This document shows, in pieces, positions 33,400 through 55,916 of a stretch of DNA of 64,000 bases. Origin of the DNA: Rhodothermales bacterium. GTDB taxonomy: Bacteria; Bacteroidota; Rhodothermia; Rhodothermales; JANQRZ01. The notes below the pieces were generated by a model. That model was given only the letters and a program-made list of their open reading frames with translations, made no database searches and was not told the origin of the DNA. The position numbers and the translations under genes are program-made. The DNA is taken from assembly GCA_038232935.1 (NCBI GenBank), contig JBBSMX010000003.1, positions 6,443-70,442 on the forward strand, given 5' to 3'. How positions within the stretch are numbered: the first letter of the stretch is position 1; each line of letters starts with the position of its first letter.

Positions 33400-34277
33400 A
33401 AGTCCCGCCTCGGGTCTGGCTCATCCTCATCGTCGGGCTCGTCTCGCTCGGGATCAGCGCGATCCTCATCCGGTTCGCCAGCTCGGCACCCGGCCTTGCC
33501 ATCGCCGTCTGGCGAACGGTGTTCGCGACCGTGCTGCTGGCACCCTTCGCGCTGCCGAAGATCGGGCCGGAGGTGCGGCGGTTCACGGGGCGGGATTGGC
33601 GGCTGATCCTCACGGCTGGCGTTTTCCTCGGGCTCCATTTCATCGTGTGGATCGAGTCGCTATACCACACGAGTGTGGCGAGCGCCACGGTGCTGGTGAC
33701 GACGAGCCCGCTGTTCATCGCCGTCCTCGGCTTTCTCGTCCTGCGCGAGCGGCTGGCGCTGCGGACCGTCGTGGCGATTGTGGTGGCGGTAGTGGGGGCG
33801 GCGCTCATCGGGCTGGGCGATGCCTCCGACGCGGCCTTTCCGAATGCGGTGCTCGGCAACGGCCTCGCGCTCACGGCATCGTTGCTGGTGGCGGTCTACC
33901 TGCTGATCGGCCGCGCTGTGCGGCAGCACACCTCGTTTCTCGCGTACCTCTTCCCGCTGTACGCGACGGCGGCGGCGACGATCCTCGCCGTTGCGCTCGT
34001 GCGCGGCACGCCGCTCGTGCAGCCGTGGCCGATCCTCGCGCTCTGTCTGGCGATGGCGGTGCTGCCCCAACTCATCGGGCACGGCTCGTTCAACTACGCC
34101 GTGAAGTACTTCCCGGCGGCCCTGCTCGGCCTGCTGTCCCTCGCGGAGCCCATCGTGTCCTCGATCCTCGCGTCCGTGCTGTTCGGCGAGGTGCCGGGGC
34201 CGCTCGCCCTTCTGGGCATGGTGGTGGTGGTGGGGTCGATCGCCGTCGTGTTCGCCCCGCGCCTGCGCCGCTCGTAG
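33345..34277 (+). CDS. DMT superfamily (EamA-like) transporter
   Basis: 10-TM profile with two EamA-like halves. Start uncertain (see hairpin overlap). Confidence 0.8.
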   Translation: MKTIERAQPETRDEKPETEVPPRVWLILIVGLVSLGISAILIRFASSAPGLAIAVWRTVFATVLLAPFALPKIGPEVRRFTGRDWRLILTAGVFLGLHFIVWIESLYHTSVASATVLVTTSPLFIAVLGFLVLRERLALRTVVAIVVAVVGAALIGLGDASDAAFPNAVLGNGLALTASLLVAVYLLIGRAVRQHTSFLAYLFPLYATAAATILAVALVRGTPLVQPWPILALCLAMAVLPQLIGHGSFNYAVKYFPAALLGLLSLAEPIVSSILASVLFGEVPGPLALLGMVVVVGSIAVVFAPRLRRS

Positions 34278-35987: not shown

Positions 35988-36090
35988 GGGGTACGGGAGG
36001 TCACGTAGGGAAGGAACTTTGAAAGCCGGCGGTCGGACGGATGACGACCGTGCACCCACTGCGTATCGGCACCTCGGGCTAATACATGAA

Positions 36091-36139
36091 GGCCGGCGCA
36101 TCGAGACGCCCCCCACCAGGAACGTCGGATGCGCCGGCC
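36091..36139. repeat. Hairpin in the divergent lipoprotein/recQ intergenic region
   Basis: ggccggcgcatcgagacg / cgtcggatgcgccggcc, with 12-bp perfect outer stem ggccggcgcatc/gatgcgccggcc. Confidence 0.55.
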
Positions 36140-36254
36140 GCCCCCTCCATTATCAGGGGGCCTCGATCATTATCCTGTAGCCCTAGACAAGAGCGTGCCG
36201 CCGATGTAACCTCTCGTCACTTTTTTTACCCTCGTGCTCTGAAGTCGCTCTTTT

Positions 36255-38228
<1,974 letters not shown>

Positions 38229-44350: not shown

Positions 44351-45304
44351 CTACGGGATGATTTTGTCGATGGGGTACTCGAGAATCCCCTCGGCCCCGG
44401 CGCGTTTCAGTTCGGGGATGAGGCGGCGCACCTGCCGCTCTTCGATCACCGTCTCCACGGCCAGCCACCCGTCTGAGAACAGGGGCGAGACGGTCGGGGT
44501 GCGGAGCGCGGGGAGCAGCTCGACGATCCGATTCACATTCTCCTTTCGAACGTTCATCTTGAGCCCGACGCGACCCTCGGCGCGGATGGCCCCGTCCATC
44601 AGGAGCGCGATGTTCTCGATTTTCTCCCGCTTCCACGGGTCCGCCCACGCTGCTTTGTTGGCGATGAGCTGCGTGTTTGATTCGAGCAGGACTTCGACGA
44701 TGCGGAGGTTGTTGGCCCGGAGCGAGTTGCCCGTCTCCGTCACCTCGACGATGGCGTCCACGAGGTCCGGCGCTTTCACCTCCGTCGCGCCCCATGAGAA
44801 CTCCACGTCGGCCTCGACGCCGTTGTCGGCCAGCCAGCGCTTCGTGAGGTTCACGACTTCGGTGGCGATCCGCTTGCCCGCGAGGTCGTGGACGCTGTGG
44901 ATGTCCGAGTCGGCGGGCACGGCGAGCACCCAGCGGACCGGCCGCATCGACGCCTTCGAGTAGATGAGGTCGGCGACGACGTGGACATCGGCGTCCGTCT
45001 CGGCGATCCAGTCGAGTCCAGTGATGCCGGCGTCGAACACGCCGTCCTCGACGTAGCGCGCCATCTCCTGCGCGCGGACGAGCATGGCCGTCAGCTCGTC
45101 GTCGTCGATGGAGGGGAAGTAGGAGCGGCTGGCGACGGAGAAGTGGAAGCCCGCTTTTGCGAGGAGGTCGAACGTGGACGCCTGGAGGCTGCCTTTGGGC
45201 AGGCCGAGGCGGAGCACCTGTGTTTCGGCGGTACCATTCGTGGAGGTCGAGGCGGGAGCGGTTTTGACAGGCATGCGAGAAGGGATAAGGGAGTGACGTG
45301 ACAT
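44351..45304 (-). CDS. hisG: ATP phosphoribosyltransferase (long form)
   Basis: [11 protein letters not shown]...[38 protein letters not shown]. Alternative ATG at 45274. Confidence 0.9.
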
Positions 45305-45306
45305 GG

Positions 45307-45332
45307 GTAGCGGGTTTCAAACCCGCCCCTAC
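45307..45332. repeat. REP-like palindrome gtagcgggtttcaaacccgcccctac
   Basis: Stem gcgggtt/aacccgc. Lies in the 33-nt DUF4837-hisG spacer. Confidence 0.6.
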
Positions 45333-45337
45333 GGAGG

Positions 45338-46507
45338 TTATTCGGAAGGCGGAGGATCGGAGCCGGCGACGACTTCGGCTCCGTTCGTGCCCGAGGTGCG
45401 GAAGGTGTACGCGATGGCTTCCATCTGGCGGAGGAACTCGCGCTTCTCGGCACTGGTGTAGCGTGGGGCGTAGATCATCCCGTCGATGAGGTAAAAGCGG
45501 CCGGTGTCCTCGTCGAAAAAGGCGTAGCTCACGAACGGGCCGCCCATGAAATCGCCGGTCATCCGCCACGTCCCGCGCGTCTCGATCGCGAAGCGCCCGG
45601 CGAGGTTGACGGTGTCCGTCTCTATGGGCCGCCGCACGAGGTCCCGGTCCTCGATGGCGATGTAGCTCTCGGGGAAGCTCCCGCGCACGAACCGCTCGGT
45701 GAGCCGGTTGCGGAGGGCGCGGACGGAGTCGGGCTGGAGCCGCTCCAGGCGGGGGTCCTCCTCGAAGTAGACGAACATGTCGCGCCACGAGTCCTGCCCG
45801 GCCAGCCGGCGGAGGCGGACGAACGTGCCGCGCTCGCCGCTGGCGGTGAGGAACGTGGTGTCCTGCGCGAGGACGTAGTCGTGCTGGACGTTGACGGCGA
45901 ACCCGTACTCATCCAAGAGCCGCTGCTCAGCCCCGACCCGCTCGCCCTTCTCGAACATGTCTTCGGTGAGGCGTCGCCGCGCGAGGCGGTCGAACGAGGC
46001 GCGGAGTTCGTCGCCTCCCGCACGGATCTGCTGCGCGAGTGCGCTGTCACTCGGGGCGGTGGCGTAGACAATGAGTTGGTCGCGCATCCAGAGGTCGTCT
46101 CGCTCGATGAGGCCGCGCCCGCCACGTTCGAGCGCGGCGACGCCCGCCGAGTCCAGCCGGGCGCGGATGAACCGGGCCGTCGCCGTAGTGTCCGTGAACG
46201 GCGCGGCGAAGACGACGCTGTGCTGGCGGCGGATGCCGTCGAGGGCGTAGTCGCTCAGCGACTGCCGCGTGAGGGTGAAGGCGGGGGTCGGCTGCGGTAG
46301 GGTGAGGGCCTCGCGGCCGAGCGTCGCACGGAGGGCCTCGCCGACCGGCCCGTTCCACGTCGCCGAGTCCGTGACGACCACCACCTCACCCGTCTTGCCG
46401 ACGGCGAGCGGCTTGTAGTTGGAGAGTTCGTTACACCCGGCGAGCAGGAGCACCACGAGGGCAGCCGGGGCGAGAAGAACGGCGAGAAGGGAGCGTCGTC
46501 GGTTCAT
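45338..46507 (-). CDS. DUF4837-like lipoprotein
   Basis: [25 protein letters not shown] lipobox; 389 aa. The start overlaps the trpA stop (ATGA). Confidence 0.7.
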
Positions 46508-47331
46508 GCGTGGGGGACGGTCGGTCCGAATTTTAGTTCGTGCGCGAAGGCGCGGACGCGCTCCAGCCGCTCCGGCTCGGTCAGCGCCGGGTCGTTCCAG
46601 AGCGCTTCGACCGTGCGGATGAGCGCGCTGCCGACGATGAAGCCGTCGGTGTGCGCGCTGAGGCGGAGGGCGTCCGCGTGCGTCCTAATGCCAAACCCGA
46701 CGAGGAGCGGATTGTTGTGGACGAAGCGGCAGGTGCGGGCCAAATACGCGGAGATTCCATCTAAAGCGCTGATGTTGCTTCCCGTAAGCCCCGTTGTCGA
46801 GACGGCGTAGACGAACGCCGAGGCGCGCTCGTCCACGAGCCGCACACGCGCTTCCGAAGTGTTGGGGGCGACGAGAAACACGAGACCGAGTCCGGCTTCG
46901 GTTGCCGCGTCTTGGATGAGATCGGCCTCTTCGGGGGGGAGATCGGGGAGGATGAGTCCATCCACCCCAGAAGACCACGCGTCGCGGCAGAAGTTGCCCA
47001 CGCCGTAGCGGAGCACCGGGTTGACGTAGCCCATCAGCAGGAGCGGCGTCTCGCTCTCGGCGCGGAACTGCTCTGCCGTGCGGAACGCGTCGGCCATCGT
47101 CACGCCGTGACGGAGGGCGCGCTCGGATGCGTACTGGATCGGGAGCCCTTCGGCGAGCGGGTCGGAGAACGGCATCCCGAGCTCGATGAAGTCGGCCCCG
47201 GCCTCGTCCACGGCGCGGAGGATGGGGAGCGTGGCGTCCGGGTGCGGGAAGCCGTTTGTGAGGAACAGGCCCATCGCCATCTCGCCTCGGGCGCGGCACG
47301 CGTCGAGGGCAATGCGGAGTCGGTCGGTCAT
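46504..47331 (-). CDS. trpA: Tryptophan synthase alpha chain
   Basis: [40 protein letters not shown]..., LLMGYVNP, and GFGI near the C-terminus. ATG 47331. Confidence 0.95.
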
Positions 47332-47770
47332 CGCTGGTAGAGAGTCGGACGGTCGATGACCATGAAGCGTTCGGGGAACGGTGCGCGAACGAAGCCGACC
47401 TTTTCGTACAGCCCATGCGCGTCCTGCGTGGTGAGCAGAAACCGCCGGAGTCTCTGCAAGTCGGGGTGTTCGAGGACGCATGCCATCAGCCACACGCCGA
47501 GGCCGTGTCCTCGGTAGGCTTCCAGCACGTACACGTCGCAGAGGTACGCGAACGTCGCCCGGTCGGTGATGACGCGGGCGAAGCCGATCTGCTCGGTCTC
47601 GGCATACAGCCCGAAGCAGAGCGAGCCCCGGATCGAGCGCTCGACCGTCTCGAACGGAATCCCCTTCGCCCAGTACGAGCGCGTGAGATAGGCGTGGATT
47701 GCCCCGGGGTCGAGCCGAGCCGGATCGCCGGAGATGGTGAAGCCGCCGCGGGTACGGGTGAAGAAGTCCG

Positions 47771-47774
<4 letters not shown>
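47328..47774 (-). CDS. GNAT family N-acetyltransferase
   Basis: 148 aa. [17 protein letters not shown]...HGLYEKVGF is the acetyl-CoA-binding motif A/B. GTG start overlaps the trpB stop (GTGA); the stop overlaps the trpA start (ATGA). Confidence 0.85.
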
Positions 47775-48978
<1,204 letters not shown>

Positions 48979-48979
<1 letters not shown>

Positions 48980-49623
48980 CACTCGGCCTCCACGGCGTTG
49001 CGGTACGCTTCGAAGAAGTCGTAGAGCTTGTCGAAGTCCTTCACGCCGGGCTCGGACTCGACCGACGACGAGAGGTCCACGGCGTAGGGCCGCATCGTGT
49101 CGATGGCTTCCTGCACGTTCCCCGCGTCGATGCCGCCGGCGAGGAAGAGGGGGAACTCCCCGGCGAGGTCGCGCGCGAGCCGCCAGTTGAAGCTCTCGCC
49201 GGTCCCGCCCCACAGGCTCGTCTTGTGCGTGTCGAGCAGGAAGAAGTCGGCGATGTCTTTGTACGGCAGCATGAGCGCGCGGAGTTGTTCGGACGAGGCG
49301 TCGTGCTGGACGCGGAAGGACTTGATTGTTGGCACCTCAATAGCCTCGACGACTTCGGGCGGCTCGTGCCCGTGCAGCTGCGCGAGCGTGAACCCGACCT
49401 CGGCGCACCGCGTGTTGATGGTCGCCGCATCCTCGTTCACGAACACGCCGACCGCCTCGATGCCATCGACCCATCCGATGATCTCTTTCGCCGCTTTCGG
49501 TTCGAGGTAGCGCGGGCTGTCGGGGTACTGGATGAAGCCGAGGTAGTCCGCGCCGGCGCCGGCGCAGTAGCGGGCGTCGGCGAGGCGGGTGATGCCGCAG
49601 ATTTTGACTTTCGTGGGGGGCAT
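48979..49623 (-). CDS. trpF: Phosphoribosylanthranilate isomerase
   Basis: [26 protein letters not shown]..., LAGGI. The stop overlaps the trpB ATG by 1 nt (TGATG). Confidence 0.9.
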
Positions 49624-49626
49624 GCG

Positions 49627-50445
49627 TCAGCTGGCGAGGCGGAGCGAAGAGGAGAGCAGGGCGGCGGTCTCGCGCCGAAGCTGGCGGAGGGCGTCGCCAG
49701 GGTGACGCGCCCGCATAAACGTCTCGCCGATGAGGACGGCGTCGATCCCCTGACGGTAGAGCATGGCGAGGTCGGTGGCATTGCGCAGGCCGCTTTCGGC
49801 TACCCGGACGATTCGTTCTGGTACATCGGCAAGCACGCGTGGGGCGCGCTCCACGTCCACCTCGAACGTCTTCAAGTCGCGGTTGTTGACGCCGAGGATG
49901 TTCACCCGGTCGAGGTCCACGGTTGCCAGTTCGGACTCGTCGTGAAGTTCCACGAGGCACTCCATCCCGAGGTCGGTCGCCGCGTCGTGGAGGTCGCAGA
50001 GCTGCACGGGGTCGAGTGCGGCGGCGATGAGGAGGACGGCGTCCGCGCCGTACGCCCGCGCTTCGACGAGCTGATACGGGTCGACGATGAAGTCCTTCCG
50101 CAGCAGCGGCAGATCGGTCCCGAGACGGACTTTCGCGAGGGTGTCGAGCGATCCCTGGAAGTGGGTCGGCTCGGTGAGGACGGAGACGGCGGCGGCACCG
50201 GCCTGCTTGTAGGCCCGCGCCGTATCGACGGGGTGAAAGTCGGACGCGATGACGCCCTGCGACGGCGACGCCTTTTTGATCTCGGCGATCACGGCGAGTT
50301 CGCCGTCGCGGCGGAGCGCGCAGGCGAGCGAGAGCGTCGGGGCGCGGAACGCCGGGCGCGCTTCGAGCGCGGCGAGGGGGACCTCCGATTTTCGGCGGAG
50401 GACGAGGGCGCGGGTGTCGGTGAGAATCTGGTCGAGGATAGTCAT
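49627..50445 (-). CDS. trpC: Indole-3-glycerol phosphate synthase
   Basis: VIAEIKKASPSQG, LRKDFIVDPYQL, VNNRDLKTFEVD, ESG. Confidence 0.95.
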   Translation of the reverse strand: MTILDQILTDTRALVLRRKSEVPLAALEARPAFRAPTLSLACALRRDGELAVIAEIKKASPSQGVIASDFHPVDTARAYKQAGAAAVSVLTEPTHFQGSLDTLAKVRLGTDLPLLRKDFIVDPYQLVEARAYGADAVLLIAAALDPVQLCDLHDAATDLGMECLVELHDESELATVDLDRVNILGVNNRDLKTFEVDVERAPRVLADVPERIVRVAESGLRNATDLAMLYRQGIDAVLIGETFMRARHPGDALRQLRRETAALLSSSLRLAS

Positions 50446-50460
50446 GGCTGGAGCAGCATA

Positions 50461-50535
50461 AGCGAGCGGAGGGAAGGAGCGGACGGGTCAGGCGGGGCGC
50501 CCGTGGCGCCATCGCCCGCTCGTAAATCGCTCGCT
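50461..50535. repeat. Word-repeat hairpin in the trpD-trpC spacer
   Basis: agcgagcgg...gagcggacggg / cccgctcg...cgctcgct, with a central GGCGCC-containing palindrome. The 115-nt spacer is the only large gap inside the trp operon. Confidence 0.5.
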
Positions 50536-50560
50536 GTGAATCTGCTCTCGGGACATGGGA

Positions 50561-51604
50561 TCAGGCCGCAGTCGCGGCGTACGCGTTGGAGGCGTCGACG
50601 AGGGCGTCGAGCTTGGCGAGGGCCGCACCGGAGTCGATGCTTTGGCGGGCGGCGTCGAGGCAGGCGCCGAGCCAGCCGTGCTGGCCGCTGGCGAGGAGGG
50701 CGTAGGCCGCGTTCAGAAGCACGATGTCGCGCTGCGGCCCGGCTTCACCCTTTAGAATGAGGCGGACGATCTCGGCGTTCTCTTGCGCCGTCCCGCCCGA
50801 CAGTTCGGAGGCACGGACGCGGCTGAGCCCGTAGTGCTCCGGCGTGACGACCTGCTGCATGAGCGTCTGCGCGCCGAACGGGTCGAGCTCGCTGCCCGTC
50901 TGGTAGACCGTCGTCGGGCTCGTCGTGCTGAGTTCGTCGAGCCCGTCGTGGGCGTAGATGCAGACGACGTGCTCACTCCCGAGGCGGACGAGGATCTGCG
51001 CCATCAGCTTGGCCGTGGCATCGCTGAAGGCGCCGACGAGCTGGCGCTTCACGCCGGCCGGGTTGCAGAGCGGGCCGAGGATGTTGAAGAACGTCCGCAC
51101 GCCGAGCGTCCGCCGGATCGGCATGACGTGTTTGAGCGCCGGGTGGTAGAGCGGGGCGAAGAGAAACGCGATCCCCGCCTCGCGCAGGCACGCCTCCACG
51201 CCCTCCTTCCCGAGCGACGTGTCCACGCCGAGCGCGGCGAGCACGTCCGCCGAGCCCGCGTTCGACGAGACGGCGCGGTTGCCGTGCTTGGCGACGATGA
51301 CGCCCGCGCCCGCCGCGACGAACGAGGCAGCCGTCGAGATGTTGAACGAGCCGGCGTGGTCGCCGCCCGTCCCGCACAGGTCGATGGCGCCCTCCGGCGC
51401 TTCGACCGAAACGGCGTACTCCCGCATGACGCGCGTGAAGCCGGTCAGCTCGTCGAGCGTCTCGCCCCGGCTGCGGAGGCCGAGCAGGAGCGCGGCGATC
51501 TCCTCGGAGGAGACCTCGCCCTTCAGCAGCAGGTGCATCACGGCCTCGGCCTGCGGCTGGGTGAGGGTGTCGCCTTCGGCGATGATCTGGAGGTACTCGC
51601 GCAA
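50561..51604 (-). CDS. trpD: Anthranilate phosphoribosyltransferase
   Basis: DLCGTGGDHAGSFNISTAASFVAAGAGVIVAKHGNRAVSS, FNILGPLCNP. Start TTG 51604 (MREYLQII...) inferred; no ATG is available after the trpG stop. Confidence 0.88.
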   Translation of the reverse strand: MREYLQIIAEGDTLTQPQAEAVMHLLLKGEVSSEEIAALLLGLRSRGETLDELTGFTRVMREYAVSVEAPEGAIDLCGTGGDHAGSFNISTAASFVAAGAGVIVAKHGNRAVSSNAGSADVLAALGVDTSLGKEGVEACLREAGIAFLFAPLYHPALKHVMPIRRTLGVRTFFNILGPLCNPAGVKRQLVGAFSDATAKLMAQILVRLGSEHVVCIYAHDGLDELSTTSPTTVYQTGSELDPFGAQTLMQQVVTPEHYGLSRVRASELSGGTAQENAEIVRLILKGEAGPQRDIVLLNAAYALLASGQHGWLGACLDAARQSIDSGAALAKLDALVDASNAYAATAA

Positions 51605-51627
51605 AACAGGGAGGGCTGGAGGAAGAG

Positions 51628-52215
51628 TTAAGAGATGGGAGCGAAGGCGTCGACGCGTTGGAGCCAGTTGGCGATGAGTTTCGGCCCCTCGACGGTCAGC
51701 ACGCTTTCCGGGTGAAACTGGATGCCCTCGATGGGGAGGTCGCGGTGGCGGAGGCCCATGATGACGCCGTCGTTGGTCTCGGCTGAGACCTCGAGTTCGT
51801 CGGGCAGCGTCTCGCGCTCGACGGCGAGCGAGTGGTAGCGCGTGGCGATGAAGTCTTGCGACATACCCTCGAAGACCGTCTGCCCGTCGTGATGGATGGG
51901 ACTCGTCTTTCCGTGCATCAGCGTCGGCGCGTGGACGACACGCCCGCCGAAGACCTCGCCGATGGCCTGGTGCCCGAGGCACACGCCGAGGATGGGCGTC
52001 GTCTCGCCGAACGTGCGGATCAAGTCCTCAGAGATCCCGGCGTCGGCGGGTCGGCCGGGGCCGGGCGAGATGAGGACCGCGCGCGGGGCGAGTTCGCGCA
52101 CCTCGTCTACGGTCATCACGTCATTGCGGACGACGCGGTATTCGTCCGTGTGCGCGCCCACGAGGTGGACGAGGTTGTACGTGAACGAGTCGTAGTTGTC
52201 GACGATGAGGATCAT
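51628..52215 (-). CDS. trpG: Anthranilate synthase component II (glutamine amidotransferase)
   Basis: MILIVDNYDSFTYNLV, ISPGPG, GVCLGHQ, QFHPES. ATG 52215. Confidence 0.92.
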   Translation of the reverse strand: MILIVDNYDSFTYNLVHLVGAHTDEYRVVRNDVMTVDEVRELAPRAVLISPGPGRPADAGISEDLIRTFGETTPILGVCLGHQAIGEVFGGRVVHAPTLMHGKTSPIHHDGQTVFEGMSQDFIATRYHSLAVERETLPDELEVSAETNDGVIMGLRHRDLPIEGIQFHPESVLTVEGPKLIANWLQRVDAFAPIS

Positions 52216-52216
52216 G

Positions 52217-53539
52217 CTAGCGCTTGTCCATTTCTTTGTTGGGGCGCTGTGCATCTGCCGTACGTAACGAAGTGCTGCGGGCACTAGTCTTCTTGGCTAA
52301 CCGAGCCTTCAGTTTTTGATTCTCGACGTTCTGCTTCTGGATCATAACGTTCTGCTTCTTGATCACGCGCAGTAAAGCGTCTCGATTCATCTGTTGTGCG
52401 GCTTCTTCTTCCTCATACCGATCTGCAATCTGCTGAGCCTTCTCGAGACCGGCCAACCTCTTTTGCATTTGAGCTTTGAGTAGATCTAGTTCGAGGAGAT
52501 CCTTCTCAAGCTTGCGCTCTAACTCAATACCTGGATAAAACTCTTTGCGTAGTCCCACGTGCTCGCGGACGCGCTCCATGATCGGGGCGGCGGCTTCGTG
52601 GGCTTTGCGGGCGCCGTCGCGGAGTACGTCGCGGACGTAGTCGGGCCGCTCGGCGAGTTCTTTCCGGCGCTCGCGGGCTTCGGCAAACTCGTCGGTGATG
52701 AGGCCGAGTAGCTCTTTTTTGGCGTGGCCGTAGCCATAGCCGCCGGCGCGGTACGCCGCCGCGATTTCCTCGCGCTTCGCGTCGTCGGCGAACAGCTTGA
52801 TGAGGGCGAACACGTTGTCGCGCTCCGGGTCCTTCGGCTCTTCGAGCGGCGTCGAATCGGTGACGATGGACATCACCTTCTTCTTCAGCTCCTTGCCCTC
52901 GTCGAAGATGCCGATCGTGTTGCCGTACGACTTCGACATCTTCCGCCCGTCGAGGCCCGGCACGACGGCGACGTCCTCCAGGATCAGCGGTTCGGGGACC
53001 GGGAAGAGCGGCGCGTCCTCGGGGCAGAAGGTGGCGTTGAACTTCTGCGCGAGGTCGCGGCTGATCTCGATGTTCTGCTTCTGATCGGCCCCGACCGGCA
53101 CGAGGGTCCCGCCGTAGATCAGGATGTCGGCCGCCTGCAGGACAGGGTACGTGAAGAGCCCGCCGTTGGCCGTGACCCCCTGCGCGACTTTCTCCTTGTA
53201 CGCCACGCCCTTTTCGATCTGGCTCACGGGCGTCAGGCAGAGGAAGATCCACGCGAGCTCGGTCACCTGCGGCACGTCGCTCTGGAGGAAGAGCGCGGCC
53301 TCGTCGGGGTCGAACCCGAGCGCGAGGTAGTCGAGCGCGACGTCGCGGCTGTACTGCTCCAGCGCCTCGCGGTCCCGCAGCGACGTGAGGGCGTGGTAGT
53401 TGACGATGAAGTAGTACGCCTCGTGCTGCTTGTGCAGCGCGATGTGCTGGCGGAGCGCGCCGAAGTAGTTGCCGAGGTGGAGCGTCCCCGACGGCTGGAT
53501 GCCGGAGACGACCACGTCGGTGGGGGAGGGCGCGGACAT
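52217..53539 (-). CDS. trpS: Tryptophan--tRNA ligase with ~108-aa low-GC coiled-coil C-terminal extension
   Basis: GIQPSGTLHLGNYFGA (HIGH-type) and GRKMSKSYGN (KMSKS). The core ends near ...VREHVGL (~52545). Positions 52217-52545 encode KLEKDLLELDLLKAQMQKRLAGLEKAQQ...KKQNVMIQKQNVENQKLKARL at visibly lower GC. Confidence 0.9.
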   Translation of the reverse strand: MSAPSPTDVVVSGIQPSGTLHLGNYFGALRQHIALHKQHEAYYFIVNYHALTSLRDREALEQYSRDVALDYLALGFDPDEAALFLQSDVPQVTELAWIFLCLTPVSQIEKGVAYKEKVAQGVTANGGLFTYPVLQAADILIYGGTLVPVGADQKQNIEISRDLAQKFNATFCPEDAPLFPVPEPLILEDVAVVPGLDGRKMSKSYGNTIGIFDEGKELKKKVMSIVTDSTPLEEPKDPERDNVFALIKLFADDAKREEIAAAYRAGGYGYGHAKKELLGLITDEFAEARERRKELAERPDYVRDVLRDGARKAHEAAAPIMERVREHVGLRKEFYPGIELERKLEKDLLELDLLKAQMQKRLAGLEKAQQIADRYEEEEAAQQMNRDALLRVIKKQNVMIQKQNVENQKLKARLAKKTSARSTSLRTADAQRPNKEMDKR

Positions 53540-54120
53540 CAGCGGGGCTCCGTGTGGATGGCGGGCTGCTCCATCGCGCCGGCGTGGTGCTCGTCGGGAT
53601 GGATGTGCACGGGCGTCGCGGTGGTCTCGTCGACGGGCACGGGTCGGGCGGGCCGGCGCATCCGGGTCACGATCGGGTGGAGCACGTTGATGCGGGCGTC
53701 GCTGCCGGTGACGTTGTTTTCCAGAATCGCCGTCGTGCGAAGCTGCTGGTGCGCCATGCCGAGCGTGTCGTTGAGCGCGTCGCGGTAGGCCCGCTCGGCG
53801 TCGTCGAGGGCGTACATGATCTCGGCATCGGTGTCACCGAGGTGGACATCGGGGTCGAGGTCCGTGCCGTTGGGCGGGTCGCCGGCGAGCGAGAACACGG
53901 TCTCCTTCAGCTTCGCAAGCTCGGTCCGCGCCCGGTTCATGCCGTCGTTGAGCTGCGCGGCGAGGTCGCGGTCGCCGAGGTCACGGATGGCGGCATCGTA
54001 GGCGTGGAGGAGGGCGTGGTGTCGCCGGATGAGCGGGTTGAGCGCGTCAACGCTCTCGGCGCGCGTCATCGAGCGGCCGGCGCCGCCCCGGTTCATGACG
54101 GACTGGATGAGGGGATACAT
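53539..54120 (-). CDS. Hypothetical helical protein (193 aa) between trpE and trpS
   Basis: ATG 54120 (MYPLIQSVMNRG...). The stop overlaps the trpS ATG by 1 nt (TGATG). Helical repeats are vaguely reminiscent of four-helix-bundle (DUF2383-like) proteins. His/Pro-rich tail. Confidence 0.55.
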   Translation of the reverse strand: MYPLIQSVMNRGGAGRSMTRAESVDALNPLIRRHHALLHAYDAAIRDLGDRDLAAQLNDGMNRARTELAKLKETVFSLAGDPPNGTDLDPDVHLGDTDAEIMYALDDAERAYRDALNDTLGMAHQQLRTTAILENNVTGSDARINVLHPIVTRMRRPARPVPVDETTATPVHIHPDEHHAGAMEQPAIHTEPR

Positions 54121-54146: not shown

Positions 54147-55673
54147 TTAGAGGAGCCCGTCGGCGGCGACGCGCATGGCGTCGAGGAGGGCGCGGGCTTT
54201 GGTGCGGGTTTCTTCGTATTCGAGGCCGGGGTCGCTGTCGGCGACGATACCGGCCCCGGCCTGGATGAACGCGGTCTCGCCACGGATCAGCATCGTGCGA
54301 ATCGCGATGCACGTGTCCATGTTTCCTGAGAAATCGGCGTAGCCGACGGCCCCGGCGTAGACGCCGCGCTTGACGGGCTCTAGCTCGTCGATCAGTTCCA
54401 TCGCGCGGACCTTCGGCGCGCCGGAGACGGTGCCGGCCGGGAAGCACGCCGCGAGCACGTCCATCGCCCGCTGCCCGTCGGCGACCTCGCCGGAGACGGA
54501 CGAGACGAGGTGCATCACGCGGGCGTAGCGCTCGACCGTCGCGTAGCGCTCCACCTCGACCGTGCCCACGCGGCAGGCGCGCCCGAGGTCGTTCCGCCCG
54601 AGGTCCACGAGCATCAAGTGCTCGGCCCGCTCCTTCGGGTCGGTGACGAGCTCCCGTTCGAGCGCGGCGTCTTCCTCGGGCGTTTCGCCGCGCCGCCGCG
54701 TCCCGGCGATGGGCAGCACCTCGGCCCGCCGGGTGCCGCCCGCCGTGCCTTCGACGCGGACGAGCACTTCGGGCGACGAGCCCGCGAGCTGGAAGCCGTC
54801 GAAATCGAGGAAGAAGAGGTACGGCGAGGGGTTCACCTGTCGGAGCGCGCGGTAGAGGTTGAACGGGTCGCCCTCGAACGGGAGCGCGAACCGCTGCGAG
54901 AGGACGACCTGGAAGATGTCGCCCTCGACGATGTGCGTCTTCGCTCGTCGCACCGACGCTTCGAAGTCCTCGCGTGTGACATTCGACTGCGGATCGCGGT
55001 CGCGGAGGGTGACGGGCTCGGGGAGGGTGATCGGTCCCGTCGTCAGCTCGGCTTCCAGCACGTCGAGCCGGGTGCGGGCGTCGTCCCACGCCGCATGGAG
55101 GTCGGTAGCGTCGTCCACGAACACGGTCGCCATCAGCACGAGCCGGCGGGCGACGTGGTCGAAGGCGGCGACGGTGTCGTAGAACGCCCACAGCGCGTCG
55201 GGCAGGCTGAGGTCGTCGGGTGGCGGGTCGGGGAGGCGTTCGAGCAGGCGCACGGCGTCGTAGCCCATGAACCCGACGGCCCCGCCGGTGAAGCGCGGCA
55301 GCTCGGGCAGCACGATCTCTTCGTAGGCATCGAGCAACTGCGCCATCACCTCGAACACGGTGCCCGCGGCGGTCTGCGGCGGGGCGCCATCACCCATCGC
55401 CAAGTCGCCGCCGTGTCGCACCCACACGTTCTCGCCGCACGCCTCGACGATCCGGTACGGTCGCGTACCGAGGAACGAGTACCGCCCGAGCCGCTCGCCG
55501 CCTTCGACGCTTTCGAGCAGGAAGCTGAATCGGCCCGGCTCGCGGAGGGCGAGGAAAGCCGCGACCGGCGTCAGCAGGTCGGCGCTGCGTCGGCGGTAGA
55601 CGGGGACAGCCAGCCGCCGCGCGCCGGCACGGCGTCGGTCCTCGACGAGGGAGTGGAAGGTCGGAAAGTCCAT
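54147..55673 (-). CDS. trpE: Anthranilate synthase component I
   Basis: LLTPVAAFLAL, FLLESVEGGERLGRYSFLG, GAPKVRAMELIDELE, RGVYAGAVGY. ATG 55673 (MDFPTF). Confidence 0.95.
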   Translation of the reverse strand: MDFPTFHSLVEDRRRAGARRLAVPVYRRRSADLLTPVAAFLALREPGRFSFLLESVEGGERLGRYSFLGTRPYRIVEACGENVWVRHGGDLAMGDGAPPQTAAGTVFEVMAQLLDAYEEIVLPELPRFTGGAVGFMGYDAVRLLERLPDPPPDDLSLPDALWAFYDTVAAFDHVARRLVLMATVFVDDATDLHAAWDDARTRLDVLEAELTTGPITLPEPVTLRDRDPQSNVTREDFEASVRRAKTHIVEGDIFQVVLSQRFALPFEGDPFNLYRALRQVNPSPYLFFLDFDGFQLAGSSPEVLVRVEGTAGGTRRAEVLPIAGTRRRGETPEEDAALERELVTDPKERAEHLMLVDLGRNDLGRACRVGTVEVERYATVERYARVMHLVSSVSGEVADGQRAMDVLAACFPAGTVSGAPKVRAMELIDELEPVKRGVYAGAVGYADFSGNMDTCIAIRTMLIRGETAFIQAGAGIVADSDPGLEYEETRTKARALLDAMRVAADGLL

Positions 55674-55706
55674 AAAAAAAGCCCGCTGCTCGGGAGAACA
55701 GCGGGC
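55674..55706 (-). terminator. Attenuator terminator (segments 3:4) abutting the trpE start codon
   Basis: Minus strand: gcccgctgttc-tccc-gagcagcgggc (11-bp stem incl. one G-U, 55706-55681), then UUUUUUU (55680-55674), then ATG (55673). Confidence 0.85.
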
Positions 55707-55729
55707 GGCGACATCGTCGTGCTCGAAGG

Positions 55730-55861
55730 TTACGCGACGGCGCACGAGCAGCCCACTGTTCGGGGGGAGGTCCACCAGAACCAGACAGCGTGGGCGGTAT
55801 GGGCGTGCGCGTGCGTCACAGCCCCCATGATACGCAGAAGGTCTCTCCGGCGCAACCGCAT
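55730..55861 (-). CDS. trpL: Trp operon leader peptide (43 aa; or 32 aa from internal ATG 55828)
   Basis: Own translation of the minus strand: MRLRRRDLLRIMGAVTHAHAHTAHAVWFWWTSPRTVGCSCAVA*. Trp codons at 55783-55781, 55777-55775 and 55774-55772. Too short for the ORF track. Confidence 0.7.
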   Translation of the reverse strand: MRLRRRDLLRIMGAVTHAHAHTAHAVWFWWTSPRTVGCSCAVA

Positions 55862-55916
55862 CTTTTCGGGAGCGGCTTCGAAAGAGGGGGCACCGAATCA
55901 CCCTATCTCATCCTCG

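Follow-up and report, generated by a model that had tools for sequence, protein, structure and literature searches.

A candidate leader-peptide attenuator for tryptophan ahead of the trpE operon in Rhodothermales

In a 64,000-nucleotide, 67% G+C stretch of DNA from a Rhodothermales bacterium (hereafter the window), a short open reading frame (ORF) with a run of Trp codons and a G+C-rich hairpin with a U-tract lie on the minus strand ahead of trpE, in an intergenic region of 243 nt that has a divergent gene at its other side. The element is very probably a ribosome-mediated (leader-peptide) transcription attenuator, which would sense charged tRNA-Trp and control trpE-hyp-trpS-trpGDCFBA-DUF4837-hisG (hyp: hypothetical gene). 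Three hallmarks of such attenuators come together here: a putative short, Trp-codon-enriched leader ORF upstream of an amino-acid biosynthetic operon; an intrinsic terminator between this ORF and the first structural gene; and an antiterminator that is mutually exclusive with the terminator, as judged from the complementarity of the two strands, their covariation and the fold of a truncated transcript. The pairing segments are numbered 1 to 4 in the order of transcription, so that 1:2 denotes the anti-antiterminator, 2:3 the antiterminator and 3:4 the terminator. An earlier note on this DNA had proposed an Escherichia coli-type Trp attenuator with this 1:2/2:3/3:4 logic upstream of trpE; the proposal is supported by conservation of the ORF, constant geometry, complementarity above that of shuffled controls, and covariation. 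The parts of the element, in the order of transcription, are as follows.

55850-55855, minus strand: −35-like hexamer TTGCGC (TTGCAT in relatives); its TTGC block is conserved, with a spacer of 17-18 nt in nine aligned leaders
55827-55832, minus strand: −10-like hexamer TATCAT, 7 nt 5' of the leader start codon
55730-55819, minus strand: leader ORF (M)THAHAHTAHAVWFWWTSPRTVGCSCAVA*, 29 codons, from GTG 55819 to TAA 55732-55730; the only start conserved in all close relatives
55790-55804, minus strand: segment 1, with GCCCAY copies 1a (55804-55799) and 1b (55795-55790), each able to pair with GUGGGC of segment 2
55772-55783, minus strand: regulatory codons TGG TTC TGG TGG (W-F-W-W); all 19 leaders compared have a W-run
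55751-55761, minus strand: segment 2, the 5' strand of the antiterminator, GAACAGTGGGC, an 11-bp complement of segment 3 with one G-U
55731-55744, minus strand: small hairpin UGCGC-CGUC-GCGUA in the RNAalifold consensus of nine sequences, overlapping the leader stop codon
55696-55706, minus strand: segment 3, the 5' arm of the 11-bp terminator hairpin, GCCCGCTGTTC
55681-55691, minus strand: segment 4, the 3' arm of the terminator, GAGCAGCGGGC; hairpin energy −21.3 kcal/mol
55674-55680, minus strand: U7 tract, followed immediately by the trpE start codon

The comparison draws on close relatives that were gathered via homologous TrpE proteins and the contigs encoding them. The closest TrpE homologues with a source name come from Rhodothermales, Rhodothermaceae, Rhodothermus or Salinibacter, and the lineage of the window is judged from these names to be of Rhodothermales type; the TrpE N-terminus MDFPTF is common to the window and the homologues. 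Scans of genome and metagenome contigs with TrpE gave best identities of 60% and 65%, respectively, among the matches listed, mostly in distant phyla. For the TrpE of Rhodothermus profundi there was no recorded contig, and it contributes no leader to the set. The 19 leaders comprise that of the window, those of eight Rhodothermales contigs (L081-L084, L086, L087, L089 and L091, the last of which carries the TrpE of Rhodothermaceae bacterium RA) with TrpE proteins 67-88% identical to that of the window, two of Salinibacter type (L090, L092) and eight of Balneolales type (L001-L006, L093, L094; TrpE 53-60% identical). The window and the eight Rhodothermales contigs form the close, GC-rich group; in sequence and base composition the Salinibacter- and Balneolales-type leaders are very different from it, but the layout is shared. 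The same ORF, with a W-run of W-[FL]-W-W or WWW, is found in all eight Rhodothermales relatives, and its start falls in a conserved alignment column. Across the 19 leaders the ORF has 22-30 codons and the W-run reads WFWW, WLWW, WWW, WWRWW or WWLW; it ends 61-74 nt before the terminator, and the start codon is 138-153 nt from the end of the U-tract. Aligning related trpE upstream regions, which the earlier note had named as a check, reveals conserved Trp runs as well as compensatory changes in the terminator and antiterminator helices.

The three Trp codons within four positions (55783-55772) read as first described, and the W-run is kept in 19/19 leaders. The motif TGGNNNTGGTGG is expected 0.3 times in the 64-kb window; its three other matches overlap one another, in a different reading frame, within a gene for a membrane protein. 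The TGG run at 34213-34233, out of frame in a membrane-protein gene, was set aside as irrelevant. For the start of the ORF, the original proposal holds only in part. The frame from ATG 55861 to TAA 55732-55730 that had been described as a 43-codon ORF is present at these positions (43 amino acids), but its start is not conserved: the frame 5' of the leader GTG is closed by stop codons in L084 and L087, has no equivalent ATG in L083 and L089, and carries an insertion in L081. ATG 55861 is located 5' of the conserved −35-like box and was rejected as leader start; the 14 extra codons overlap the conserved promoter-like TTGCGC-N17-TATCAT and are probably not translated. Since GTG 55819 is the conserved start, the conserved peptide is the one of 29 codons listed above. 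The start codon is GTG in seven leaders of the close group and ATG in two (L081, L091).

The terminator hairpin GCCCGCTGTTC-TCCC-GAGCAGCGGGC has 11 bp, including one G-U and eight G-C pairs; as the earlier note had it, the 11-bp hairpin with its 4-nt loop (55706-55681) is followed by U7 and, with no spacer, by the trpE ATG. T7 runs occur only twice in the whole window, and hairpin plus U7 is the strongest terminator-like site within the 15 kb scanned. It cannot belong to the upstream gene because that gene is divergent. In the 19-sequence alignment, 95% of the cells of the hairpin are paired, against 36-51% in slid controls, and seven of the 11 pairs show both-sided compensatory changes. The observed values were attained in 0/500 column shuffles, a control that ignores phylogeny among what are 19 related sequences; this limit applies to the covariation of the antiterminator as well.

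No G+C hairpin precedes the other T7 run (36221-36227), which is located 5' of a gene for a RecQ-like helicase (36255-38228). About 80 nt upstream of it, at ~36092-36140 on the plus strand (region 36090-36254), there is a 12-bp inverted repeat, GGCCGGCGCATC...GATGCGCCGGCC.

For the antiterminator, the 11-bp complementarity with one G-U between 55761-55751 and the 5' arm of the terminator was found as initially reported. The best duplex that the region following the W codons can form with this arm has, in the window, an energy of −24.1 kcal/mol, compared with −13.9 ± 2.7 kcal/mol for dinucleotide shuffles, and 1/500 shuffles attained it; across the leaders, the corresponding figure is 0-8/500 in 18/19. 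The alignment of 19 sequences has 81% of antiterminator cells paired (33-57% when slid), with both-sided changes in five pairs and a covariation score attained by 0/500 shuffles. Changes are also consistent over three strands: a T to C change in segment 3 is accompanied by A to G in segment 2, and where a G-C pair of 3:4 has become A-U, the U of segment 2 still has a partner. A second mimic had also been put forward, in which GCUGCUCG pairs with CGAGCAGC of the terminator 3' arm. The pairing is perfect in the window, where GCTGCTCG (55752-55745) is an exact 8-bp complement of CGAGCAGC (55692-55685), but only there; no compensatory changes occur in relatives, and the mimic was rejected as a conserved element.

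The putative anti-antiterminator would be formed by GCCCAY, whose copies read Ala-His in frame, and GUGGGC. This pairing is present in all close relatives and encloses the W codons. RNAalifold extends it with GUUC (from the W-F codons) paired to GAAC, in which one C-G to U-A change occurs in L084 and L087; its consensus uses copy 1b, and the minimum free energy (MFE) structure of the single sequence uses copy 1a. The 1:2 pairing first proposed, by gcccacgctgt (55795-55785), stands as far as GCCCAC (55795-55790) pairs with GTGGGC; the remainder needs a 2-nt bulge, and its CTGT:ACAG extension is not conserved. Balneolales-type leaders, by reading, have a different segment 1.

In folding calculations, a window transcript truncated before segment 4 adopts a multibranch 2:3 fold (region −34.3 kcal/mol), inside which the small stop-codon hairpin falls. 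In the full-length leader, 1:2 and 3:4 form together, at −66.5 kcal/mol, with −18.2 kcal/mol for the 1:2 region alone.

The sequence 5' of the leader start also holds conserved elements. In the close-group alignment, TTGC(A/G)(T/C), a spacer of 17-18 nt of free sequence, TAT(C/G)(A/C/T)T, 6-7 nt and GTG/ATG follow one another. The pattern TTGnnn-N16-18-TAnnnT is matched in 16/19 leaders, and L090, added by eye, brings this to 17/19, where 6-10 nt separate the end of the promoter-like element from the leader start codon. The −10-like hexamer and the start are 6-7 nt apart in the nine Rhodothermales-type leaders of high G+C; the Salinibacter type has 8 nt here, and the Balneolales type 6-10 nt. 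The stretch fetched for L093 holds just 5 nt 5' of the leader ATG. No conserved Shine-Dalgarno (SD) motif was seen before the leader start. TTGCGC and TATCAT are predicted to work as a promoter. Because the −10-like hexamer is so close to the start codon, the spacing suggests that the leader 5' untranslated region (UTR) is probably only ~0-3 nt long, in other words that the sensing ORF is leaderless or nearly so. A literature search for transcription start site or promoter data from Rhodothermus found nothing.

A conserved block, CCCTCTTTCGAAGCCGCTCCCGAAAAGATGCGG (55856-55890, minus strand), lies just 5' of the −35-like box. It is kept in relatives that have the same divergent upstream gene and is missing in L083 and L089, where a co-oriented DsbA-like gene sits upstream. 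The block could be an operator or a piece of the promoter of the divergent gene.

In the proposed mechanism, transcription would start about 7 nt past TATCAT (55832-55827), at or just before GTG 55819, and the 29-codon ORF would be translated from a leaderless or nearly leaderless RNA. When Trp is scarce, the ribosome would stall at W-F-W-W (55783-55772) with a W codon in the A site. The footprint of the stalled ribosome, estimated at ~55798-55762 over the three W positions, would cover copy 1b, the W-codon strand and the whole 5' half of the 1:2 hairpin; copy 1a would be just beyond it, and pairing around the ribosome is implausible. Segment 2 would pair with segment 3 as the latter emerges, the terminator would not form, and transcription would read through into trpE. 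When Trp is plentiful, the ribosome would cross segment 2 to the stop codon (55732-55730) and sit between segments 2 and 3 (footprint estimate 55747-55720); 1:2 would re-pair behind it, 3:4 would form, and transcription would stop in the U7 tract. If the leader were not translated at all, 1:2 and 3:4 would form and lead to termination as well. A second layer may exist, because the U7 tract abuts the trpE AUG: in read-through RNA that has refolded, the terminator hairpin may hinder initiation of trpE translation, while with 2:3 formed, the U-rich stretch ahead of the AUG would be single-stranded. Such an effect would be accessory at most, since the terminator is 14-263 nt from trpE in other members of the set.

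Several points weigh against this scheme. In the register first proposed, the 1:2 helix has six conserved pairs with zero both-sided changes in nine sequences, and in the RNAalifold register it has a single compensatory pair, probably reflecting one event. The antiterminator duplex of L081 is no better than shuffles (59/500). The whole-leader MFE has a z-score of just −1.89; in the comparison with shuffled controls that the earlier note had advised, it is the 2:3 duplex that stands out, in 18/19 leaders. At equilibrium, the terminator still wins in the full-length leader when a 28-nt footprint over the W codons is masked. The switch must, for this reason, be kinetic, like that of E. coli, and kinetics are beyond folding calculations; equilibrium folding with ribosome-footprint masks, which never removed the terminator, was rejected as a test of it. 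By the footprint estimate, 4 nt separate segment 2 from a ribosome that has reached the stop codon. As the footprint misses this segment, the Trp-replete path relies on steric separation and on 1:2 re-forming, unlike the direct masking in E. coli. In L091 and the Balneolales type, where the stop codon is nearer to segment 2, the terminating ribosome would mask it directly, as in E. coli. Finally, searches for transcription-start, 3'-end or Trp-response data from this or any related organism found none, and ribosome stalling and a Trp response at this leader are predictions from the sequence.

Among the alternatives, dual sensing of Trp and His fares best, although it is improbable. Here, the His codons 5' of the W-run would also stall ribosomes in His starvation, mask segment 1 and cause read-through. 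The window peptide reads H-x-H-x-H-T-A-H, and H-T-A-H is kept in eight of the nine GC-rich leaders, including L091 with its 67% TrpE identity; in the window as in two related contigs (L172, L173), the gene string closes with hisG, which follows DUF4837 at a distance of 14-33 nt; and the last His codon (55792-55790) is inside segment 1b, where a stalled ribosome would free segment 2. However, the His codons are not consecutive, and two alone are conserved. Moreover, GCC-CAY is the very GCCCAY motif that pairs with GUGGGC, with a third-position C or U that is neutral for pairing with G, so that selection at the RNA level could explain the His codons. His codons are absent from Salinibacter-type leaders and number 0-2 in those of Balneolales type, and the Rfam His_leader model has no match in the window. 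The earlier note had regarded the His codons and hisG as probable coincidence; this may be too simple in that H-T-A-H and the hisG linkage are both conserved, but segment-1 pairing does offer an explanation unrelated to His. A wider proposition is just as doubtful, namely that the leader is truly leaderless, with GUG or AUG at the 5' end of the RNA, that this design is conserved across Rhodothermia and perhaps in all Bacteroidota Trp leaders, and that His status is integrated through the conserved codons. If true, the first ribosome would load directly behind RNA polymerase, in lineages without SD-led initiation, and His status would be integrated into the control of an operon uniting two pathways that consume phosphoribosyl pyrophosphate (PRPP; trpD, hisG) with trpS.

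Purely translational control, in which the 3:4 hairpin would block the trpE AUG and be opened by leader translation without significant premature termination, is very unlikely. The trpE AUG does abut the U-tract in the window and four close relatives, and trpE has no preceding SD sequence; in Bacteroidota-type bacteria, an unpaired U-rich stretch would favour SD-independent initiation. Against this, the hairpin and U7 have every appearance of a textbook intrinsic terminator (11 bp, eight G-C pairs, 4-nt loop) in a window of 67% G+C where T7 runs are very rare, and in other members the terminator lies 14-263 nt from trpE and cannot occlude the start, yet the architecture is kept. Antitermination by a protein or tRNA (TRAP-like, T-box-like or through another RNA-binding factor), with an incidental small ORF, carries almost no weight: such systems also employ terminator/antiterminator pairs, and genome annotation excludes no unknown factor, but the scans matched neither a T-box nor any other Rfam family, the leader has two GAG triplets only and no TRAP-type (G/U)AG repeat array, and the in-frame W-run, start codon and ORF of 22-30 codons are kept over 19 leaders of very different base composition, which is not expected of untranslated RNA.

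The leader-peptide attenuator favoured here can be compared with known systems, starting with Rfam. The leader region was scanned at E<=10, the whole window at gathering thresholds, and the relatives at gathering thresholds and E<=5. No model reaches threshold anywhere in the window, and the E. coli-type Trp_leader (RF00513) and Bacteroid-trp (RF01692) are silent in the leader region even at E<=10. Sub-threshold matches (anti-hemB, sX13, His_leader, Trp_leader) align with the terminator only; the best relative against RF00513, L002, scores 25.8 bits, mostly from the terminator, against a gathering cut-off of 41 bits. RF01692 found no match in the window or in six related loci, including Balneolales-type ones, at permissive thresholds, in a scan without a Bacteroidia positive control. 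The earlier note knew of no curated leader model for this lineage. Bacteroid-trp does exist for Bacteroidetes, but both models miss the element, and the cmscan run that the note had proposed yields no family-level match.

In comparison with E. coli trpL, the element shares a putative leader peptide with tandem Trp codons, predicted mutually exclusive 1:2/2:3/3:4 pairings, an intrinsic terminator before trpE and, in the proposed mechanism, sensing of charged tRNA-Trp through the position of the ribosome. It differs in that the peptide, 29 codons long against 14 in trpL, extends across segment 2, so that the stop codon is between segments 2 and 3 instead of between 1 and 2. The Trp codons are in the 5' strand of the 1:2 hairpin, 3' of GCCCAY; the leader is probably leaderless, whereas trpL has an SD-led 5' UTR; no spacer separates the U-tract from the trpE AUG; and the operon also holds trpS and hisG.

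Bacteroid-trp was described as a presumed peptide leader upstream of trpB or trpE in Bacteroidetes, with at least two UGG codons and a 'loosely conserved hairpin', and was suggested by the authors to be an attenuator (Weinberg et al. 2010, PMC2864571). The window element fits this description, being a short ORF upstream of trpE with at least two UGG codons, but not the RF01692 score. The two have in common their position upstream of trpE or trpB and at least two conserved UGG codons in a short ORF, and their lineages are sisters, Rhodothermia grouping with Bacteroidota. The Bacteroid-trp seed, by contrast, consists of Bacteroidales-, Flavobacteriales- and Cytophagales-type sequences, with no Salinibacter or Rhodothermus, and its consensus structure consists of one hairpin, with no terminator. 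The seed peptide that was translated (Bacteroides thetaiotaomicron, 20 codons) ends before the putative antiterminator, whereas the window peptide reads through it. By our own reading, a TAnnTTTG promoter box stands 5-6 nt 5' of the leader AUG in many seed members (PMC2864571, supplementary file 136), which suggests that near-leaderless ORFs of Trp leaders may be general in Bacteroidota. Transcriptome data have also led to the inference of leader-peptide attenuation in Bacteroidetes (PMC9723704).

Further afield, experimental support for Trp-dependent attenuation is cited for trpE leader peptides of Streptomyces venezuelae and Corynebacterium glutamicum in PMC4833913. These actinobacterial leaders resemble the present one in their high-G+C genomes and in a W-run leader peptide upstream of trpE; the lineage is unrelated. 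The set of 160 trpE loci covered by a pattern scan included loci from Streptomyces, none of which was picked up. The same crude scan, covering many phyla, found a W-rich short ORF plus a terminator-like hairpin outside Rhodothermia in L010 (a Spirochaetales metagenome-assembled genome), L028, L099 and L107, with peptides including MNRNILCSIWVWWSGPHGPPG and MNKMLNNWCWWRVMAGS. Mycobacterial leaderless short ORFs have a Cys-responsive attenuator role. As promoter spacing predicts for the present leader, they are regulatory upstream ORFs translated from a leaderless RNA with ATG or GTG at its 5' end, and they control biosynthetic genes further downstream (Shell et al. 2015, PMC4633059); unlike it, they concern another amino acid in another phylum and involve no classical terminator/antiterminator switching.

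Published descriptions of Trp attenuation in Rhodothermales or Balneolales were not found, and a literature search for Salinibacter likewise returned nothing. A 2010 study by Lopatovskaya et al. reportedly covers attenuation beyond Proteobacteria. The present leaders would extend classical Trp attenuation to Rhodothermales and Balneolales, where the Rfam models detect nothing, and the 19 sequences are a ready set for a curated family. Common descent of the AT-rich and GC-rich leaders is suggested by their shared geometry and a CAGUGG / CCCRCUG core alone. A covariance model built from the eight Balneolales-type leaders matched only the terminators of the GC-rich relatives (E 1.4-4.8) and nothing in the window; as it misses the window leader, homology between the two kinds lacks statistical support and architecture alone is shared. 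The conserved geometry, with a promoter box 6-10 nt before the start and ~140-150 nt from start to U-tract, predicts a leaderless or near-leaderless sensing ORF, and also that the terminating ribosome works through its position between the two strands of the antiterminator. A further consequence would be that trpS and hisG are placed under a tRNA-Trp-sensing switch, a minor but conserved regulatory connection. How attenuation as such is understood does not change; this would be a known kind of amino-acid sensor.

The genes adjoining the leader are the following.

54147-55673, minus strand: trpE (anthranilate synthase component I; Pfam Chorismate_bind and Anth_synt_I_N), first gene of the operon, with its ATG at 55673
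44351-54120, minus strand: remaining gene string, assigned by Pfam, comprising a hypothetical gene (193 amino acids), trpS, trpG, trpD, trpC, trpF, trpB, trpA, DUF4837 and hisG
44351-46507, minus strand: DUF4837-hisG pair, which corresponds to 19139-21300 in L172 and 18896-21037 in L173
55917-57176, plus strand: divergent upstream gene, 419 amino acids, with a signal-peptide-like N-terminus MNRLLHAGLLLLLAAPAFAQ

The order of the string is identical in L172 (TrpE 81% identical) and L173 (67%), down to DUF4837-hisG, and the terminator scan of 15 kb found no strong intrinsic terminator inside the trpE-to-hisG string. The genes from trpE to hisG are taken to be co-transcribed. DUF4837 followed by hisG is a conserved distal end of the trp string, with gaps of 14-33 nt, in relatives down to 67% TrpE identity; PRPP is used by both TrpD and HisG.

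Within the string, trpS (52217-53539, minus strand) sits between trpE and trpG in the window and in the Rhodothermales relatives with contigs that reach far enough. The window ORF has 440 amino acids, compared with 343-358 in full-length relatives, and its C-terminal extension of ~100 residues is rich in Lys, Glu and Gln and has no Pfam match. The hypothetical gene between trpE and trpS (53539-54120, minus strand) is conserved, with 193 amino acids in the window, 167-202 in Rhodothermales relatives and 131 in the Salinibacter-type L090; its match to DUF2383 is weak and sub-threshold (23.4 bits against a cut-off of 30.8). The product of the divergent gene has no Pfam match and contains numerous degenerate repeats that follow (V/I)Q(L/A/S)AGLAN(V/I)xGE. 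The window ORF with the TrpA domain (46504-47841, minus strand) has 445 amino acids, the first 180 of which have no Pfam match at E<=1e-5. This means either that trpA truly starts further inside the ORF or that it is fused to, or overlapped by, a diverged gene. In L172, a gene for a GNAT acetyltransferase (L172 17854-18318) lies between trpB and trpA.

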